NCBI GenBank assembly: GCA_963817575.1
Contig: CAWFOY010000003.1
Location: 1,680 to 65,679, forward strand
Length of the DNA stretch: 64,000 nucleotides
From: an uncultured Gemmatimonadales bacterium
Lineage (GTDB): Bacteria > Gemmatimonadota > Gemmatimonadetes > Gemmatimonadales > GWC2-71-9
Direction: 5' to 3'
Both the position numbers and the translations under genes were made by a program. A model generated the notes under the pieces. The model was not told the DNA's origin and made no database searches. It saw only the letters and a list, made by a program, of their open reading frames with translations. Positions 5,452-34,728 of this stretch are shown in pieces (the stretch's first letter is position 1; each line of letters opens with the position of its first letter).

Positions 5452-6687
5452 ATGCGCCTCATCCTGCTCTCCGCGCTCCTGGCCGCCGTGCTGGCCGGCA
5501 GCGCTGCCGGCCAGCACGAATCGCCGGCCTCGACCTGCGCCCCCGATGACGCAGGCCTCCAGCTTCCCTCGGGATTCTGCGGGATTCCCTTCGCAACGGG
5601 ACTTGGCCGGGTGCGACACCTGGCCGTCGCCGCGAACGGCGATGTGTTTGTTGCCACGCGCGGGGATTCGGGTGGCGTGATATCTCTGCGTGACGCCGAT
5701 GGCGATGGACGCGCCGAAACGGTGCATCGATTCGGCCCCGGGGGTGGCACGGGGATCGCGCTTTCGCAGGATGCGCTCTACTTCGCATTGAACGACCGCG
5801 TGGTGCGGTGGACGTGGGCCCCGGGGCAACTGGAGCCGGCCGGTGAGCCGGTGACCATCGTCGGGGACCTGCCGACCGCCGGCAATCACGGCGCAAAGTC
5901 GATTGCGCTGGGCCAGGACGGCGCGCTGTACCTCGGCGTCGGGTCCGCCTCGAATAGCTGCCAGGTGGAGAATCGCGTGGACCGTTCCCCGGGGCAGGAC
6001 CCGTGTCCGGAGCTTGCGACCCGGGCCGGGATCTGGCGGTTCGACGCCGCGAAGTCAGGCCAGCGCCAGGGGGACGGGGTGCGCTTCGCCACCGGCCTCA
6101 GGAATCCGACCGCAATCGCGATCCAACCGGCCGGCGGGGCGCTTTATGCGGCGCCTTTCGGCAGGGACCAGCTGAGCGACAACTGGGGATACTCGGACTC
6201 GCTCAACGCGGAACTCCCGTCAGAGGAGTTCGTGGCCGTTGCCAACGGCGATGACTTCGGATGGCCCTACTGCTACAATGATCATCTCCAACGCCGGAAG
6301 GTGTTGGCGCCGGAGTACGGCGGCGACGGCAAGACGGTAGGGCGATGCGCGAAGGCCAAGCGGCCGGCGATCGGATTCCCGGGGCACTGGGCGCCGATGG
6401 CGATCGCCTTCCAGCCGTCGGAGGCCTTCGGCAAGGACTATCTGGGCGGCGCGTTCGTCGCGTTCCACGGCTCGTGGAACCGCGCGCCGCTGCCGCAGGC
6501 CGGCTTCCGGATCGCGTTCGTGCCGTTCCGGGACGGGAAGCCGACTGGGGAGTACTCCACGTTTGCCGCACGCCGGGGTAATCCCCAGGGTCTCCGGGCG
6601 TCCGGCGTGGCGGTCGGCCCGGACGGATCGCTGTACATTTCGGACGAAAACGCGGGTACCATTACGCGCGTCGTGCGCCGGCCCTGA
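5452..6687 (+). CDS. PQQ-dependent sugar (glucose/sorbosone) dehydrogenase-like beta-propeller, secreted
   Basis: The track ORF starts at 5254. The signal peptide MRLILLSALLAAVLAGSAAGQ starts at ATG 5452 in the same frame. The C-terminal region ..GFPGHWAPMAIAF..AFHGSWNRAP..GVAVGPDGSLYISDENAGTITRV is typical of the sorbosone/glucose dehydrogenase family. Confidence 0.7.
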   Translation: MRLILLSALLAAVLAGSAAGQHESPASTCAPDDAGLQLPSGFCGIPFATGLGRVRHLAVAANGDVFVATRGDSGGVISLRDADGDGRAETVHRFGPGGGTGIALSQDALYFALNDRVVRWTWAPGQLEPAGEPVTIVGDLPTAGNHGAKSIALGQDGALYLGVGSASNSCQVENRVDRSPGQDPCPELATRAGIWRFDAAKSGQRQGDGVRFATGLRNPTAIAIQPAGGALYAAPFGRDQLSDNWGYSDSLNAELPSEEFVAVANGDDFGWPYCYNDHLQRRKVLAPEYGGDGKTVGRCAKAKRPAIGFPGHWAPMAIAFQPSEAFGKDYLGGAFVAFHGSWNRAPLPQAGFRIAFVPFRDGKPTGEYSTFAARRGNPQGLRASGVAVGPDGSLYISDENAGTITRVVRRP

Positions 6688-28472: not shown

Positions 28473-30188
28473 GTGCCGAGACTCCAGCTCCCCGACAGCC
28501 CGGCCGGCTTCGCCGAAGCCACCTGGGAAGACCTGCGCCCGTACTTCGAGACCCTCGCCACGATGCCGGTGGCGGAGGGCGAGGTCGAGGCATGGCTGGG
28601 CGAGTGGTCTCGCCTCGAGGAGCTGGTGACGGAGGCCGCCGGGCTGGCGATGATCGCCTACACCGCGGACACCGGGGACGCCGCCAAGGAGGCCGCCCAT
28701 CTTCGCTTCTCGTCGGAGATCTTCCCGGTCATGGAGGAGCAGGGCGTCCGCCTCGCGCGCCGGCTGCTGGACTTCGGCTACACGCGGCCCGATCTGGACG
28801 TGGTCCTCCGCCGGTTCAGGACCCAGATCGAGATCTTCCGGGAGGAGAGCGTTCCGTTGTTCGCCGAACTGGAGGAGTTGTCGGCGCGTTATCAGCGACT
28901 CACGGGCGGCATCACGGTGGAGTGGGAGGGCGAGCGGAAGACGGTGCCGCAGCTGCTGCCCTACCTGAAGCAACCGGACCGCGCGGTGCGCGAGCGGGCG
29001 TTCCGGGCCATCAGCGCGCCGTATGTCGACCTTCGCGCCGACCTCGCCGGGATCTTCGACGAGATGTACATGCGGCGGCAGCGCGTCGCGGCCCAGGCTG
29101 GCCTGGCGGATTTCGAGGCGTATGCCTTCCGCGCCAAGTGCCGGTTCGACTACACGCCGGCGGACTGCACCAGGTTCCACGAGGCGGTGGAGGCCGCCGT
29201 CGTACCCGCAGTGGGCCGCATCCATGAGCGGCGGCGCCAGCGACTCGGCCTCGAGCGGCTTCGGCCGTGGGACCTGGACGTGGATCCCTCGGGCCGGCCT
29301 CCGATCCGCCCTTTCACGACGGCGGACGAACTGGCGCGCAAGAGCGCCGACGTCTTCCGAGCCGTCGCTCCGGAGCTCGGCGACCAGTTCGACACGATGC
29401 GCGGGGAGCGGCTGCTCGACCTCGAGAGCCGGAAGGGCAAGGCTCCGGGCGGCTATTGCGAGACGCTGCACGCGAGAGGGCGACCCTACATCCACATGAA
29501 CGCCGTGGGACTTGTGGACGACGTCATGACGCTGCTGCACGAGGCGGGGCATGCCTTCCACGCGTTCGCGGCTCATCCTCAGCCGTTCATCTGGCAGCGC
29601 CATGTCGGCTCGGAGGCCGCGGAGCTGGCGTCGATGACGATGGAATTGCTCGCGGCTCCGAGGCTGGATGGGCCGGGCGGGCTGTTCACCCCCGAGGCGC
29701 TCCGGCTCGCGCGCATCGAGCACCTGGAGGACGTGCTGGTGACCCTCACGCACGTGGCCTCTGTGGACGCCTTTCAGCGCTGGATTTACACCAGCGGGGA
29801 AGGGCATGACCCGGAGGCGCGCGACCAGGCGTGGCTCCGGATTCGCCGCCGATTCGAAGGGGTGGTCGACTGGAGCGGACTGGAGCGAGAGCGGGTGGCC
29901 CGGTGGTACCGCCAGCTACACGTATTCCTGTACCCGTTCTACTACATCGAGTACGGACTGGCCCAGCTCGGGGCGCTGCAGATCTGGCGGCGGAGCCGCG
30001 AGGACCACCCTGCCGCGGTGCGCTCGTATCGCGCGGCGCTGGCCCTCGGGTCCACCACTTCGTTGCCGGAGATGTTTGGGGTGGCCGGGGCCCGGTTTAC
30101 CGTCGATGCCGACGTCGTGGCGGACCTCGTCGCCCTGGTGGAGGAGGAGCTCGAACGGCTGCACGCCGGTGCACCCGTGGTTGCATAA
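28473..30188 (+). CDS. M3-family oligoendopeptidase (PepF-like)
   Basis: 571 aa with the zinc motif ..TLLHEAGHAFHAF.. and overall PepF-like length and organisation. Confidence 0.8.
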   Translation: MPRLQLPDSPAGFAEATWEDLRPYFETLATMPVAEGEVEAWLGEWSRLEELVTEAAGLAMIAYTADTGDAAKEAAHLRFSSEIFPVMEEQGVRLARRLLDFGYTRPDLDVVLRRFRTQIEIFREESVPLFAELEELSARYQRLTGGITVEWEGERKTVPQLLPYLKQPDRAVRERAFRAISAPYVDLRADLAGIFDEMYMRRQRVAAQAGLADFEAYAFRAKCRFDYTPADCTRFHEAVEAAVVPAVGRIHERRRQRLGLERLRPWDLDVDPSGRPPIRPFTTADELARKSADVFRAVAPELGDQFDTMRGERLLDLESRKGKAPGGYCETLHARGRPYIHMNAVGLVDDVMTLLHEAGHAFHAFAAHPQPFIWQRHVGSEAAELASMTMELLAAPRLDGPGGLFTPEALRLARIEHLEDVLVTLTHVASVDAFQRWIYTSGEGHDPEARDQAWLRIRRRFEGVVDWSGLERERVARWYRQLHVFLYPFYYIEYGLAQLGALQIWRRSREDHPAAVRSYRAALALGSTTSLPEMFGVAGARFTVDADVVADLVALVEEELERLHAGAPVVA

Positions 30189-30277
30189 CGGGACCCGCCG
30201 GGCAAGATTCCCCCGGTTCCCGCGCCGGCGGCCGGTAGGGCCGCGAGGCGAGCAGGTCCCATGGGCGGAGTTCGTGG

Positions 30278-30496
30278 ATGGCGAAAGAAGAAGGCATTGA
30301 GATGGAAGGGGTGGTTACCGAAGTTCTCCCCGACCGCAACTACCGGGTGCTGCTCGAGAACGGTCACTCGATCCTGGCGTACGCCGCCGGAAAGATGAGC
30401 AAGTTCAAGATCCGTGTACTCGAGGGCGACCGGGTCAGCGTCGTGCTTTCGCCCTATGATCTCACCCGGGGCCGGGTCATCTACCGCCACAAGTAG
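30278..30496 (+). CDS. infA: Translation initiation factor IF-1
   Basis: 72 aa: [72 protein letters not shown]. Confidence 0.95.
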
Positions 30497-30543
30497 GCTG
30501 CTTCGCGCCATTCCATGGGACCCCGTCCGGGTCCTGGCAACGA

Positions 30544-30594: not shown

Positions 30595-30807
30595 TTACTT
30601 GACCTTGGTGACGTTCTCAGCGGCCGGGCCCTTGGCACCCTGCACGATGTCGAACTCGACCTTGTCGCCCTCGGAAAGGCTGCGGAACCCATCGGCCTTG
30701 ATGGCGGTGTGATGGACGAAGCAGTCCTTTTCACCGTTTTCGGGGGTGATGAACCCAAAGCCCTTCGCGTCGTTGAACCACTTCACCGTGCCGGTCGTGC
30801 GTGCCAT
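30595..30807 (-). CDS. Cold-shock protein (CspA family)
   Basis: From the internal ATG 30807: [69 protein letters not shown]1 (KGFGFI) and RNP2 (VFVHH-like) motifs are present. Confidence 0.93.
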
Positions 30808-30978
30808 GGAACCAAACTCCGTTGTTGTGTGCATACGTCGGGGTTCGGTCTGGCCGCCCCACCGACTCCGTCATGGGAGCGAGCCTATCTCGCGCCATGA
30901 CAAACCAAAACCCGGAACGACTTGCCCGGGATATTTGCTCAAATCGCGCGGCAAATGTTGCACTCGCAGGCAGTTAAG

Positions 30979-32742
30979 TCAAGAGGACCCCCCGGAACCC
31001 CCCTTCCGCCACCACCGGGCGGCCGCCTTGGCCCACTCGCCGCTTCGTTCCCGGAGGCGCCGTCCCGTCGCCCGGTTGAGGGCTTGGAGGAATTCGGCGG
31101 CGGAGGGGTACCGGGCCTCCACTTCGTTCCGAAGGGCCCGCTCCAGGACGGCGTTCAGCTCCGGGCCCACCTCTGGACGCCGGGCCAGCAGGGCAGGGCG
31201 GCGATCCGCCGTCTGGCGCGCCAGGACCTGCTCCACCGTCGCGCCCGGGAACGGGCGTTCACCGAGCAGCGCGAAGTACGCCACGGCCGCCAGGCTGTAG
31301 AGATCGGAGCGCTGGTCCACCCGCTCGCCGAGGAGCTGCTCCGGGCTGGCAAACTGCGGGGTGCCGCTCTGGCTCGTAGCGCCGCCGAAACGGCCCTCCC
31401 CACGCAAGGCCAGCGCCAGCCCGAAGTCGGTGATCCGCAGTGTGCCGTCAGGCTCCAACAGCAGGTTTTCCGGCTTGATGTCGCGGTGGACCAGGCCCAT
31501 GCCGTGGGCGTGGGTCAGCGCCGACAATGCCTCGCGGAGGATGCGGAGCACGGCCTCCAGGGGCAGGGGCCCGTCCCGTTCCACGAGCTGGGCCAGGTTC
31601 GGGCCCTTCACGAAGGCCATCGTGTACCACAGCAGGCCGGCCCGTCCGGCGATGTCATAGATGTCCACGATGTTCGGATGACGAAGTCGGGCGGCCATCT
31701 GCGCCTCGCGGCGGAAGCGCTCGACCACGGACGGCTCGGTCGTGAGTTGCGGGTGCAGGATCTTGAGTGCGACCTCGCGCTCCAGGTGAAGGTCCCGCAC
31801 TCGGTACACCCGACCGAAGCCGCCGGTGCCCAGCGGGCCGAGCAGCTCGTAGTCGTCGCCGAGCGCGCGCCGGAGCCGCTTTTCCCAATGCTCGCTCGCT
31901 TCGAACGGGGCATCCTGCCCGGGGGTTATGCCCGGCGTCTCGTAGGTGCCGGCGTCCGACGTGAAGTCCTCCAGCATCTCTCCGGGGGTCAGGTAGCGGT
32001 CATCCGCGACCCGTTGCAGCGCCCGGAGGAGGATGCGATCGAGGGCGCGCGGGCAGTTGGGCCGGAGCTCGGAGGGGCGCCGGACGAGCGTCGAGTCCAG
32101 GGGGGGCGCCTGACCCGTGACGGAGAAGTACAGGATGGCACCTGCCGTGTAGACATCGCTCGCAGGATCGCCCGGCTCGCCTCCACGAACCTCCGGCGCC
32201 AGGAATTCCAGGCCCGTGGGAGTCTCGGTCGAAGGGATGGCGGGGAGGGTGTAGCTGCAGAACCGGAGGTCGGTGATCGTTCCGCGCCCGGACGGGCCGA
32301 GCAGCAGCGATTGTGGAACGATGCGCCGGACGATGATTCCGCGGGCGTGTGCGTGGTCCAGGGCGGTGAGGATATCCCGCGCCAGGGCGTGGACGGTTGG
32401 AATGGGGCGCGGCCCGCGCTGGACGGCGTCGGCCGCGCTCTCCCCCTCGATCCAACTCCCCACCCGGAAGGCGATGTCGCCGATGACGCCCGCGTCGTAC
32501 ACATGCCGGATGGCCGGGTGATCCAGCTGGCCGAGGGCCTCGGCCTCGCGCAGGAACCAGGCGCGGACGGTACTGTCGGGGTAGAAATTGACGCGGAGGC
32601 TCACCCGGCGGCGGAGGACGAGATCCCACGCCTGGAACAACACGCGCTCCCTCGAGGAGGCCACGGTCCGGTCGATGCGGTAGCGCGCGCCCAGCGCCTG
32701 GGCGGCGCGCTCGGCGTAGAGGCCGGGATCGGTGGCGGTCAT
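30979..32742 (-). CDS. Cytoplasmic tandem kinase: N-terminal degenerate (pseudo)kinase domain plus C-terminal canonical Ser/Thr kinase domain
   Basis: 587 aa. The C-terminal half has GTGGFGRVY, VALKIL, HRDIKPENLLL, DFG and SPE motifs. The N-terminal half aligns as a kinase fold but lacks the G-loop, carries VSLRV instead of VAxK, IVRRIVPQSLLL instead of HRDxKxxN, and DLR instead of DFG. No TM or known sensor domain is present. Confidence 0.85.
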   Translation of the reverse strand: MTATDPGLYAERAAQALGARYRIDRTVASSRERVLFQAWDLVLRRRVSLRVNFYPDSTVRAWFLREAEALGQLDHPAIRHVYDAGVIGDIAFRVGSWIEGESAADAVQRGPRPIPTVHALARDILTALDHAHARGIIVRRIVPQSLLLGPSGRGTITDLRFCSYTLPAIPSTETPTGLEFLAPEVRGGEPGDPASDVYTAGAILYFSVTGQAPPLDSTLVRRPSELRPNCPRALDRILLRALQRVADDRYLTPGEMLEDFTSDAGTYETPGITPGQDAPFEASEHWEKRLRRALGDDYELLGPLGTGGFGRVYRVRDLHLEREVALKILHPQLTTEPSVVERFRREAQMAARLRHPNIVDIYDIAGRAGLLWYTMAFVKGPNLAQLVERDGPLPLEAVLRILREALSALTHAHGMGLVHRDIKPENLLLEPDGTLRITDFGLALALRGEGRFGGATSQSGTPQFASPEQLLGERVDQRSDLYSLAAVAYFALLGERPFPGATVEQVLARQTADRRPALLARRPEVGPELNAVLERALRNEVEARYPSAAEFLQALNRATGRRLRERSGEWAKAAARWWRKGGSGGSS

Positions 32743-32761: not shown

Positions 32762-33304
32762 TCAGCGCAGCGCCCGCCGGCGCTCGACGAGAATGGGCTG
32801 GCCGCAGGTATCGTCGCTGCACCAGCGTCGCACGTGGCCTGGGGTTGAATCCACGAAGTACAGCGAGCAGGTGGGCGCGGCGCATTGCCGTACCTGGGTG
32901 GCGGGGTCGGCGAGGGTCTTGGCCGCGCTCCGGACGATCGCGTCGGTGGCCGTCGGGGCGTGACTCGGAGCGAAAACCAGCCGCCATTCTCCGCGCACGC
33001 GCGTGAGCTGATGGTGGCCGTTGGCCGTCGCGAGGACCCGGTTGATGTCCTGAATGCACGAGGAAGGAGGCTGGCGTCCGGCCGCGAGCGCTTCCGCCAG
33101 GCTGAGCAGCATGACTCGCAGGGCCACCACGTCAGTGAACGCGATGTTGTCCGCGTCCGAGGCGATCTTCTCCGCCTTGGTCCACCGATGGTAGGCCGGC
33201 GCGTCCATCAGCCGGTCGGTCACGGCGGCGACGCGGTCCCGCGCGGTATTGATGAAGTCGATCCAGACCGCATCGCCGAGCAGGAGAAACTCAGGATCTC
33301 CCAT
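32762..33304 (-). CDS. CGNR zinc-finger / ABATE-domain protein
   Basis: 180 aa. The C-terminal ..CAAPTCSLYFVDSTPGHVRRWCSDDTCGQ.. matches the C-x4-C..F.D.S..RRWCS...CG(N) zinc-finger pattern. The N-terminal ..FINT.. is ABATE-like. Confidence 0.75.
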   Translation of the reverse strand: MGDPEFLLLGDAVWIDFINTARDRVAAVTDRLMDAPAYHRWTKAEKIASDADNIAFTDVVALRVMLLSLAEALAAGRQPPSSCIQDINRVLATANGHHQLTRVRGEWRLVFAPSHAPTATDAIVRSAAKTLADPATQVRQCAAPTCSLYFVDSTPGHVRRWCSDDTCGQPILVERRRALR

Positions 33305-33318
33305 CGCGCCCCCCGCTC

Positions 33319-34659
33319 CTAGAAGTCGCCGGCGATTTCGGCGAGGTCGCGGCCGCCACGCTTGGCCTTGTACAGCGCGGCATCGGCCGCGGCGAGCAGG
33401 CTGCTCACGGTCGTGCCGTGGCGAGGTGCCTCCGCGACGCCGAAACTGAGCGTCTGGCGCCCGAAATCCGGATGCGACCGCTCCACCTCGGCGATGCTGG
33501 CCTGGACCCGGCCCACGAAAACCATCGCCTCCTGCGGCGTCGTCATGGGGAGGACGACGAGGAACTCATCGCCACCCAGCCGGCCGACGACGTCGAGGGT
33601 ACGGCACTGCTGGCGGAGGATGTTGGCCAGGATCACGAGCAGGCGGTCGCCTGAGGGATGACCCATCGAGTCGTTGACGTGCTTGAAGCGATCGAGATCG
33701 AGCAGCACGATGGACGTATGAAGCTGGTGCCGGGTCGCGCGGGAGAGTTCCGCGGCCAGGCGCTCCTCGAGCGCCCTGCGATTGTAGAGCTGCGTGAGCT
33801 CGTCGGTGTTGGCGGCGCTCTGCAGCTGCTCCACGAGGTGCGCATTCTTGAGGGCGATCGCCGCGGCGAAGGAGAGCGTGCCGGCGAGATCGAGCTCGGC
33901 GGGTCCGTACGCCTTGCCGCTGATGCGCGGGCCGAGCAGCAGTGTCGCCATCCGCTCCGGGCCCGCGTCGAGCGGCACGACTACTTCGGTCAGCGGCATG
34001 ACGACGGAGGCGAGTGCGACGTCCTCGCAGCCGCTGGCGGCACTGCCCAGGGGCAGTGCGGCATCGAGCTCTGCCCGCGGCATCGGCCCCGGCCGGATGC
34101 GGTCATCCAGCGAGCGGAACACCTTCGGCTCATAGGTCGCATCGGCGGGCCGGAAGAGGCACGCCCACCAGGCGAAGAACACTTCGGCCATGAAATCGAG
34201 GATGAGCTGCTCGGTCTCTTCGGAGGAGTGCACCGACGAGAGCAATCGCGCCACCTGGCGCAGTGCCCGCAGCTGGAAGGCGGCATCGTCCAGGGCGGCC
34301 TGGCGCTCGAGCAGGATGCTGCGCAGCTCGAGGACCACGGAGAGCCCGTGCGCAAGCGGAAGGGCGATCTCCCGAAGCCGCGGCGCCAGCGGCGGTTCGG
34401 TCGAGATGATGACTTCGGTCTGGCCACTCTTGAGGCGTGCGACCTCGATGGCCTCCACGAAGCCCCCGGCCGGCCCTACGCGAGGGATGGCCCCGGTCGG
34501 CGAATGGATCGTGAACCAGATCTGCTCGGATTGGAATCGGCCCACCAGCGCGTCACGGCACCGCTCGAAGAGTTCGGCGTCGGTCCGGGAGAGTCGGCAC
34601 GCTGCGGCGAAGGCGCTCGGCAGGGTGTGCAGCGTCACGGAACCAGAGGGGAGACCCAT
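33319..34659 (-). CDS. Diguanylate cyclase (GGDEF) with an N-terminal GAF-like sensory region
   Basis: 446 aa. ..DELTQLYNRRALEERL..VLLDLDRFKHVNDSMGHPSGDRLL..RTLDVVGRLGGDEFLVVL.. shows an intact GGDEF motif and an RxxD I-site at the canonical spacing. Confidence 0.88.
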   Translation of the reverse strand: MGLPSGSVTLHTLPSAFAAACRLSRTDAELFERCRDALVGRFQSEQIWFTIHSPTGAIPRVGPAGGFVEAIEVARLKSGQTEVIISTEPPLAPRLREIALPLAHGLSVVLELRSILLERQAALDDAAFQLRALRQVARLLSSVHSSEETEQLILDFMAEVFFAWWACLFRPADATYEPKVFRSLDDRIRPGPMPRAELDAALPLGSAASGCEDVALASVVMPLTEVVVPLDAGPERMATLLLGPRISGKAYGPAELDLAGTLSFAAAIALKNAHLVEQLQSAANTDELTQLYNRRALEERLAAELSRATRHQLHTSIVLLDLDRFKHVNDSMGHPSGDRLLVILANILRQQCRTLDVVGRLGGDEFLVVLPMTTPQEAMVFVGRVQASIAEVERSHPDFGRQTLSFGVAEAPRHGTTVSSLLAAADAALYKAKRGGRDLAEIAGDF

Positions 34660-34728
34660 GCCCCAAGATAGCGTCCAACGGCTTTCTTGCCAACGCGTTG
34701 CACGCTTGCGACAGGAACGGATGGAGGC

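Follow-up and report, generated by a model that had tools for sequence, protein, structure and literature searches.

The DNA analysed here, referred to as the window, is a stretch of 64,000 nucleotides (nt) from contig CAWFOY010000003.1 of an uncultured soil or sediment Gemmatimonadales bacterium (GCA_963817575.1), whose minus strand carries a gene for a protein of 587 amino acids (aa) with two Hanks-type kinase folds in one chain, a degraded copy followed by a canonical Ser/Thr kinase. An original prediction, made from the sequence without database searches, had read this gene as a JAK-like tandem of pseudokinase and kinase; the two folds are borne out by Pfam, phmmer, NCBIfam and Foldseek searches with AlphaFold2 (AF2) models, and the motifs it quoted are all found in their places in the translated open reading frame (ORF). 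The data are best explained by a Hanks-type Ser/Thr kinase of Gemmatimonadota that is cytoplasmic or, at the most, peripherally attached to the membrane, and that has orthologues of the same length class (585–605 aa) in many Gemmatimonadales. Its features are given below, with residue conservation counted over 79 species-level orthologues and local model confidence given as the predicted local distance difference test (pLDDT).

30979..32742, minus strand: whole gene, 587-aa tandem pseudokinase-kinase protein (maximal open frame)
32692..32727, minus strand: N-terminal helix, residues 6–17, before pseudokinase beta1 (AF2 secondary structure H6-17)
31954..32694, minus strand: pseudokinase domain, residues 17–263, Hanks-type fold with degraded catalytic motifs and without helix alphaG (Pfam, phmmer, NCBIfam, Foldseek)
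32644..32664, minus strand: VASSRER, residues 27–33, where the GxGxxG glycine-rich loop belongs (PknB alignment)
32590..32604, minus strand: VSLRV, residues 47–51, with R50 instead of the beta3 Lys (R50 in 79/79 orthologues)
32299..32334, minus strand: IVRRIVPQSLLL, residues 137–148, where HRDxKxxN belongs (R139 and R140 invariant)
32263..32271, minus strand: DLR, residues 158–160, where DFG belongs (D158 in 78/79, R160 invariant)
31897..31953, minus strand: inter-domain linker, residues 264–282, predicted disordered (pLDDT <50; columns variable except at the start)
31858..31896, minus strand: junction helix SEHWEKRLRRALG, residues 283–295, W286 to G295 nearly invariant (AF2 and column counts)
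31075..31857, minus strand: canonical Ser/Thr kinase domain, residues 296–556 (Pfam Pkinase E 7e-60 and motif table)
31339..31428, minus strand: activation segment of the active domain, residues 439–468 (conserved T456, S457, S459 and T461)
31003..31044, minus strand: basic amphipathic C-terminal helix EWAKAAARWWRK, residues 567–580 (conserved W570, A571, A574 and W577)

The C-terminal domain (C-domain) belongs to Pfam PF00069, with 203 bits against a gathering threshold of 31.7, and is canonical as proposed. Every catalytic motif is present: GTGGFGRVY at residues 305–313 (G-loop 305–310), VALK at 324–327 with the beta3 Lys K327, the alphaC Glu E346, HRDIKPENLLL at 419–429 (HRD 419–421, N426), DFG at 439–441 and SPE at 466–468. 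The activation loop is disordered in the AF2 model, and its conserved T456, S457, S459 and T461 are candidate autophosphorylation sites.

The N-terminal domain (N-domain) matches kinase profiles from end to end, over residues 17–263 where the original prediction had about 20–285. Taken alone it scores 47.7 bits against Pfam Pkinase (E 1.8e-12, cut-off 31.7), its best phmmer match in the PDB is StkP (E 5e-21 over residues 17–263), followed by PknA, PknB and PknE, and residues 15–261 align to positions 3–266 of the NCBIfam profile PknB_PASTA_kin with an E-value of 7e-35. The AF2 model of residues 1–292 has a predicted template modelling score (pTM) of 0.80, and Foldseek superposes it on PknB of Staphylococcus aureus (4eqm, TM-scores 0.71/0.76, root-mean-square deviation (rmsd) 2.7 Å) and of Mycobacterium tuberculosis (1mru, 0.70/0.76). 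Other kinase motifs are recognisable, with LDHPAIRHVYD at residues 73–83, the APE motif kept within LAPEV (181–185) and DVYTAGAILY at 196–205.

Alignment with PknB shows how far the catalytic apparatus has gone. The beta3 Lys K40 corresponds to R50 and the HRD residues H136/R137/D138 to V138/R139/R140, so that the catalytic Asp is replaced by R140, while the catalytic-loop Lys K140 and Asn N143 correspond to V142 and S145. The residue equivalent to the gatekeeper is Gly95, and an 11-residue deletion, relative both to PknB and to the protein's own C-domain, removes helix alphaG in the alignment and in the secondary structure of the model. The claim that every catalytic signature had been lost thus holds for the Gly-rich loop, the beta3 Lys, the HRD Asp and the catalytic-loop Lys and Asn, but not for the DFG Asp (D158) or the alphaC Glu (E66), which are retained. 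Under the sequence definition of a pseudokinase (absence of the beta3 Lys, HRD Asp or DFG Asp) the N-domain qualifies through R50 and R140, with D158 kept, and it is probably non-catalytic.

R20, R50, E66, D83, R139, R140 and R160 are each found in 79/79 orthologues and D158 in 78/79, and R50, E66, R139, R140, D158 and R160 are invariant even in relatives of about 40% identity (P0124, P0272). Pairs of family members have an average identity of 0.73 over the N-domain and 0.81 over the C-domain, and the ratios of nonsynonymous to synonymous substitution (dN/dS, NG86 method) are 0.215 and 0.177, values that are rough because dS is near saturation. These comparisons indicate that the degraded domain is under purifying selection nearly as strong as that on the live one, which argues for a function.

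A search with the N-domain returned more than 2300 proteins, of which the best 120 are almost all 568–609 aa long with both kinase matches and N-domains 63–95% identical to that of the window; the named sources among them are Gemmatimonadales. In a scan of one genome per species of the Genome Taxonomy Database (GTDB), relatives were found in 408 genomes, and the best 80 of these carry Gemmatimonadales or Gemmatimonadota labels save for one contig labelled Bacillota. That contig (L072, JBLMWC010000126.1), from a metagenome-assembled genome (MAG), holds the whole queC-queE-HD-GGDEF-CGNR-kinase-CSD-infA-M3 block at 64–93% identity and is probably mis-binned or mislabelled. The gene of Gemmatimonadales bacterium SMAG_U785 is 99% identical to that of the window. 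Full-length homologues (580–605 aa) always have the two halves fused, with shorter matches resembling fragments, and the gene is single-copy, slowly evolving, syntenic and of housekeeping type.

Maximum likelihood analysis of 58 kinase-like domains placed the N-domains and the C-domains of the family in two monophyletic clades (support 100/100 each), which are sisters with moderate support (85/70) and have branch lengths of 1.26 and 0.54, respectively. Only 16 residues precede the first kinase fold, and the helix that they contain (residues 6–17) is the counterpart of the junction helix ahead of the active domain (H283-294 in AF2). The sister relationship and the helix before each copy together point to an intragenic duplication of a unit of helix plus kinase. 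The data fit a duplication older than the split of the Gemmatimonadales clade from the P0124/P0272 clade, after which the first copy would have degraded.

No transmembrane (TM) segment is predicted in the 587 aa (Kyte-Doolittle means over 19-residue spans peak at 0.91), and Pfam returns kinase-type families only, with no PASTA match, in keeping with the proposed lack of TM, PASTA, FHA or other sensor domains. The further step of taking the pseudokinase as the only candidate regulatory module went too far, as the conserved junction helix and the conserved basic C-terminal helix are also present. For the latter the hydrophobic moment is 0.8, compared with an average of 0.34 (standard deviation 0.18) over the protein, and the tail carries a charge of +7; the helix may serve as a peripheral membrane anchor or as a binding site for a partner. 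Directly after the last pseudokinase helix, the segment SDAGT(F/Y)E (residues 262–268, 31939-31959, minus strand) is nearly invariant amid the otherwise variable linker, with T266 occupied by T in 72/79 and S in 6/79 orthologues; it may serve as a phosphosite or as part of an interface. The linker Thr T269 was also considered as an FHA docking site and dropped, its column holding T 32, S 20 and N 17 times in the 79 orthologues.

In sequence and fold, the closest relatives of both halves are PknB and PknA of M. tuberculosis, StkP of Streptococcus pneumoniae and Stk1/PknB of S. aureus, whose catalytic motifs and Thr/Ser-rich activation loop are all shared by the C-domain. In kinases of this type, one kinase domain is joined through a juxtamembrane segment and a lone TM helix to extracellular PASTA or other sensors, whereas the window protein has neither TM helix nor sensor and instead carries a second, dead kinase fold in front. 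It reaches 384 bits against a cut-off of 450 for NF033483 (Stk1/PknB PASTA kinases) and, lacking TM and PASTA segments, falls outside that family.

In PknB, the back-to-back interface between N-lobes drives dimerisation and allosteric activation. The three residues R10, L33 and D76 of that interface all have equivalents in the N-domain (R20, L43 and D83), and those of L33 and D76 are also present in the C-domain, where the corresponding positions read D297/L320/D363. The Asp in place of R10 was considered as a sign that only the pseudokinase dimerises, and this was dropped since acidic residues fill that column in about 15% of the active domains compared. An equivalent interface forms the PknB-like back-to-back dimer of the pseudokinase of MviN (Rv3910) through L750 and D793, the counterparts of L43 and D83 (PMC12599244).

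Because the N-domain keeps the R20/L43/D83 of an interface used by both PknB and MviN, we regard a dimerisation or allosteric input as the most likely role of the dead copy, and give about an even chance to its acting in cis on the active domain, without catalysis of its own, as a regulatory or dimerisation module. An ancient duplication within the gene gave two copies of a unit of N-terminal helix and kinase domain, of which the C-terminal one remained the enzyme, while the N-terminal copy lost its Gly loop, beta3 Lys, catalytic Asp, catalytic-loop Lys and Asn and alphaG and was then held almost as constant as its partner. Under the proposed scheme, the dead copy would supply the input that receptor-type kinases obtain from ligand-driven dimerisation through extracellular sensors, and this input would set the level of autophosphorylation at T456, S457, S459 and T461 in the activation loop, with a net effect that could be either activating, as in PknB, or inhibitory, as in JAK. 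From a rough estimate of its extended length, the 19-residue disordered linker together with helix 283–295 could span either an intramolecular N:C or an intermolecular N:N pairing.

Several observations weigh against this regulatory role. Residues of the L33 and D76 type are the majority state in bacterial kinase domains generally (comparison set), so that the retention of L43 and D83 is compatible with the dimer idea and not specific for it. The invariant Arg cluster of R50, R139, R140 and R160, with D158 and E66, is unexplained by pure dimerisation and hints at the binding of a ligand or phospho-residue. Helix alphaG serves as a protein-docking helix in kinases, and its loss shows that some interaction surfaces have been given up. 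Structure prediction, which had been proposed as a check of the two-domain arrangement, supports the kinase fold of the N-domain alone but not that arrangement: the full-length AF2 model has a pTM of only 0.49, which leaves the inter-domain geometry without confidence, and shows no confident inter-domain packing and a disordered linker. Foldseek of the two-domain model against the PDB gave mostly single-domain matches and no JAK pseudokinase-kinase in the top 50, in which the sole two-domain match was EGFR-KDD (9p9u, rmsd 13 Å).

The comparison with JAK stands in part. The window protein shares with JAK JH2-JH1 (and with GCN2) the order of a pseudokinase N-terminal to a kinase in one chain, here without a TM segment, and a conserved, presumably regulatory pseudokinase; in JAK, JH2 regulates JH1. 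It has no FERM or SH2 domain and is of the Ser/Thr rather than the tyrosine kinase type, which sets it outside the JAK family, and its tandem is not of shared ancestry, having arisen by duplication of a bacterial PknB-like domain. JAK JH2 also keeps its Gly-rich loop and binds ATP, whereas the window N-domain has lost that loop. No JAK-like inter-domain geometry was recovered from the low-confidence two-domain model, and the analogy holds only for domain order and presumed logic. The plant tandem kinases (WTK1/Yr15, Sr62, Pm24) likewise join kinase and pseudokinase in one soluble protein through duplication or fusion, but they are eukaryotic immune receptors, usually with the kinase first, and are believed to serve as decoys for, or sensors of, pathogen effectors; in contrast to such fast-evolving immune genes, the window gene is single-copy, slowly evolving and syntenic.

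Among bacterial pseudokinases, the families ActPs1-3, GLW, CP1, DYD, DLHK and MviN are also degraded Hanks folds under constraint, but are stand-alone pseudokinases on TM, PQQ, COG3899, PAS or transporter modules in Actinobacteria, Proteobacteria and Cyanobacteria (PMC12599244). ActPs1 members often lack alphaG, as the window N-domain does, GLW replaces HRD with GLW, CP1 occurs only in linkage with COG3899 and ActPs3 is attached to TM segments (PMC12599244). For none of these families is a fusion with an active kinase described, and the signature of R, VRR and DLR differs from every signature given there, a separation based on the published descriptions rather than on profiles.

Around the gene, the minus-strand order is epimerase/SRPBCC, queC, queE, HD_4, GGDEF, ABATE/zf-CGNR, kinase and cold-shock protein. 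The nearest features are:

33319..34659, minus strand: GGDEF diguanylate cyclase with an N-terminal sensor-like region, first of a putative three-gene unit (Pfam GGDEF E 1.6e-45; synteny)
32762..33304, minus strand: ABATE + zf-CGNR putative regulator, 19 nt from the kinase start (Pfam; syntenic in nearly all close loci)
34665..34693, minus strand: match to a sigma-70-like promoter immediately before the GGDEF gene (by consensus only; 1 seen, 0.3 expected)
30911..30930, minus strand: terminator-like hairpin and T-run about 50 nt past the kinase stop (weak; 2 found against 2.0 expected by chance)
30595..30807, minus strand: cold-shock protein gene downstream of the kinase (Pfam, synteny)
30278..30496, plus strand: infA, tail to tail with the cold-shock gene, with an M3 peptidase gene next on the plus strand (Pfam, synteny)

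Gaps within the GGDEF-CGNR-kinase trio are 14 and 19 nt, and the same order is found in nearly all of the 80 orthologue loci whose flanks are long enough. Across the close orthologue loci all 12 kb of the neighbourhood are collinear, for which reason adjacency carries little functional weight, and in the clade of about 40% identity the GGDEF/CGNR adjacency is absent, a divergent FHA-FHA-trypsin gene and a CN_hydrolase gene being found instead. Linkage to GGDEF and CGNR was consequently set aside as functional evidence and retained as a lead only. The neighbour in the distant clade (L083 4797-6890, minus strand, and L084) encodes a 697-aa protein with two FHA domains, a coiled region, a trypsin-like protease domain and, at its centre, a hydrophobic stretch that could be membrane-spanning. 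Binding of this protein to the kinase in a phospho-dependent way is plausible, but no homologue was found in the 64-kb window or in the 80 orthologue flanks. Gene context thus yields leads (cyclic di-GMP (c-di-GMP) signalling, the CGNR regulator, FHA proteins) and no firm partner. Within the cyclase, RTLD is followed after five residues by GGDEF, the usual I-site spacing.

The strongest competitor, possible but unlikely, is that the pseudokinase is a docking scaffold which recruits substrates or partners to the active domain and leaves its intrinsic activity unchanged. Candidate partners would be the FHA-FHA-protease in distant members, or the upstream CGNR regulator and GGDEF cyclase. FHA domains bind phospho-Thr, and the gene next to the distant members (about 40% N-domain identity) encodes two of them, while the close members always lie behind the GGDEF and CGNR genes, with the short gaps noted above in the window. 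There is precedent in that bacterial pseudokinases such as MviN act as scaffolds (PMC12599244). Against a scaffold, the two clades have unlike neighbours but identical signature residues in the N-domain, and the evidence from adjacency is weakened by the 12-kb collinearity among close orthologues. The N-domain also lacks alphaG, the classical docking helix, and the FHA-protease has no homologue in the window or its 80 orthologue flanks.

Less likely again is that the N-domain is not inert, its Arg-lined cleft binding ATP, GTP, a nucleotide second messenger or a phospho-residue, or performing non-canonical chemistry as SelO and SidJ do, which would make it a sensor or a second enzyme. The invariant R50, R139, R140 and R160 occupy positions that line the phosphate and substrate cleft of kinases, D158, the Asp that binds metal, is kept together with the alphaC Glu E66, Gly95 at the gatekeeper position could leave the pocket open, and a diguanylate cyclase and an HD_4 protein are encoded upstream. 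Against these stand the loss of the Gly-rich loop for nucleotide phosphates, of the catalytic base and of the Asn for a second metal, and the presence of the same Arg signature in the distant clade without GGDEF adjacency. A more specific proposal, that the pseudokinase is a genuine input domain whose Arg-lined former active site binds an anionic signal (c-di-GMP from the cyclase encoded two genes upstream, or a phospho-residue) and switches the kinase through the N-lobe interface, is a long shot; were it true, the protein would be a convergent bacterial counterpart of JAK JH2-JH1 and a direct link from a second messenger to Ser/Thr phosphorylation.

A phage-defence tandem kinase of the PglW or MAD6 type is very improbable. 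In PglW of Streptomyces coelicolor an atypical kinase domain without a predicted ATP site (195–490) precedes a Hanks domain (530–816) that autophosphorylates and is needed for phage resistance, so the order is the same as here (PMC4365076). The original statement that no characterised bacterial example was known is therefore too strong. The PADLOC and NCBIfam PglW profiles match in register over both domains, that of PADLOC in one stretch that aligns residues 120–443, from the N-domain C-lobe through the linker into the C-domain, to positions 318–663, which implies a shared tandem layout, and many PADLOC kinase models match the protein. However, PglW has about 1400 aa, a nuclease-related NERD start and a long C-terminal region and works in phage defence with PglX, PglY and PglZ, whereas the window protein has 587 aa and no NERD domain, with no pglX, pglY or pglZ, methyltransferase or other defence gene nearby. 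Scores are far under the curated cut-offs, at 119 bits against 990 for BREX/Pgl PglW (NF033442) and 256.7 (rounded, 257) against 460 for the MADS kinase MAD6 (NF047741), and the PADLOC PD-T4-6 matches are generic kinase-domain matches. The gene lies in a stable housekeeping block (queC, queE, cspA-like, infA) collinear in 80 species rather than in a variable island. Given scores below the curated cut-offs and the absence of the defining domains and neighbours, the protein is not a PglW, MAD6 or PASTA kinase.

The least probable reading, refuted by conservation, makes the N-terminal half a decaying, functionless remnant of the duplication, which the loss of all catalytic signatures except the DFG Asp might suggest, but which is contradicted by a dN/dS of about 0.2, near that of the active domain, by 73% identity across species-level orthologues, by replacement residues that stay invariant even at about 40% overall identity and by a fusion kept in 408 species genomes.

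The preferred reading of the dead copy as a regulatory or dimerisation module concerns a layout that extends beyond this family. A survey of related architectures, as the original prediction had suggested, shows that the fusion recurs, both in the 408 species genomes above and more widely. The N-domain was searched with phmmer against 1.84 billion cluster representatives and the best 150 were dissected with hidden Markov models of both domains, a procedure that enriches for multi-domain proteins because ranking is by summed score. At least two kinase-like domains, and in some proteins up to six, were found in 101/150 of these representatives, and 44 of the 101 hold at least one domain without the beta3 Lys, HRD Asp or DFG Asp. 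Direct support for prokaryotic origin comes from P0225 (581 aa, pseudokinase then kinase), an NCBI Planctomycetota protein, and from P0175 (one active and two degraded domains), which has a compact gene neighbourhood of prokaryotic type; most of the remaining multi-kinase proteins are likely prokaryotic too. For most of these other proteins, the domains of one protein cluster in the tree, which indicates many independent duplications. Four giant proteins, P0141 (2573 aa), P0189 (2592 aa), P0168 (2457 aa) and P0256 (7165 aa), have four to six kinase-like domains in a row, and P0141 and P0189 carry degraded copies in front and two intact ones at the end.

The literature, searched for bacterial tandem kinase/pseudokinase proteins, yielded nothing beyond work on plants and animals, the PglW paper and two surveys of bacterial kinomes, and neither the 2025 review of bacterial pseudokinases nor the preprint atlas of bacterial Ser/Thr kinases mentions tandems or Gemmatimonadota. 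The layout is thus real and not previously described for this Gemmatimonadota family, but it is recurrent in bacteria rather than unique, and the family is an unnamed, well-conserved example of a recurrent, under-described bacterial design. Pseudokinase-kinase tandems (JAK, GCN2, plant tandem kinases) are textbook cases of built-in allosteric control in eukaryotes, while hardly any work has been done on pseudokinases of bacteria, and tandems go undiscussed in recent surveys of bacterial Ser/Thr kinases. The many independent duplications, giving two to six kinase-like domains and often dead copies, suggest a recurrent, under-described design of prokaryotic signalling. Because it is small, soluble, single-copy, conserved and free of other sensor domains, the present family would be an uncomplicated system in which to study how a dead kinase copy serves a live one, and also what controls a bacterial Hanks kinase that lacks an extracellular sensor.

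The locus was present only in DNA metagenome runs (freshwater sediment, soil, wetland) and in no RNA run. Downstream of the kinase, the cold-shock and infA products are 87–100% identical across orthologue loci, and in the program-made list of ORFs the antisense entry 29942..30511 is a shadow of infA. At one orthologue locus (L001) the public annotation places a 100-aa ORF on the opposite strand at 5495-5797; tblastn finds a CGNR homologue of 48% identity at that position, and the CGNR gene there seems to have been missed by annotation.

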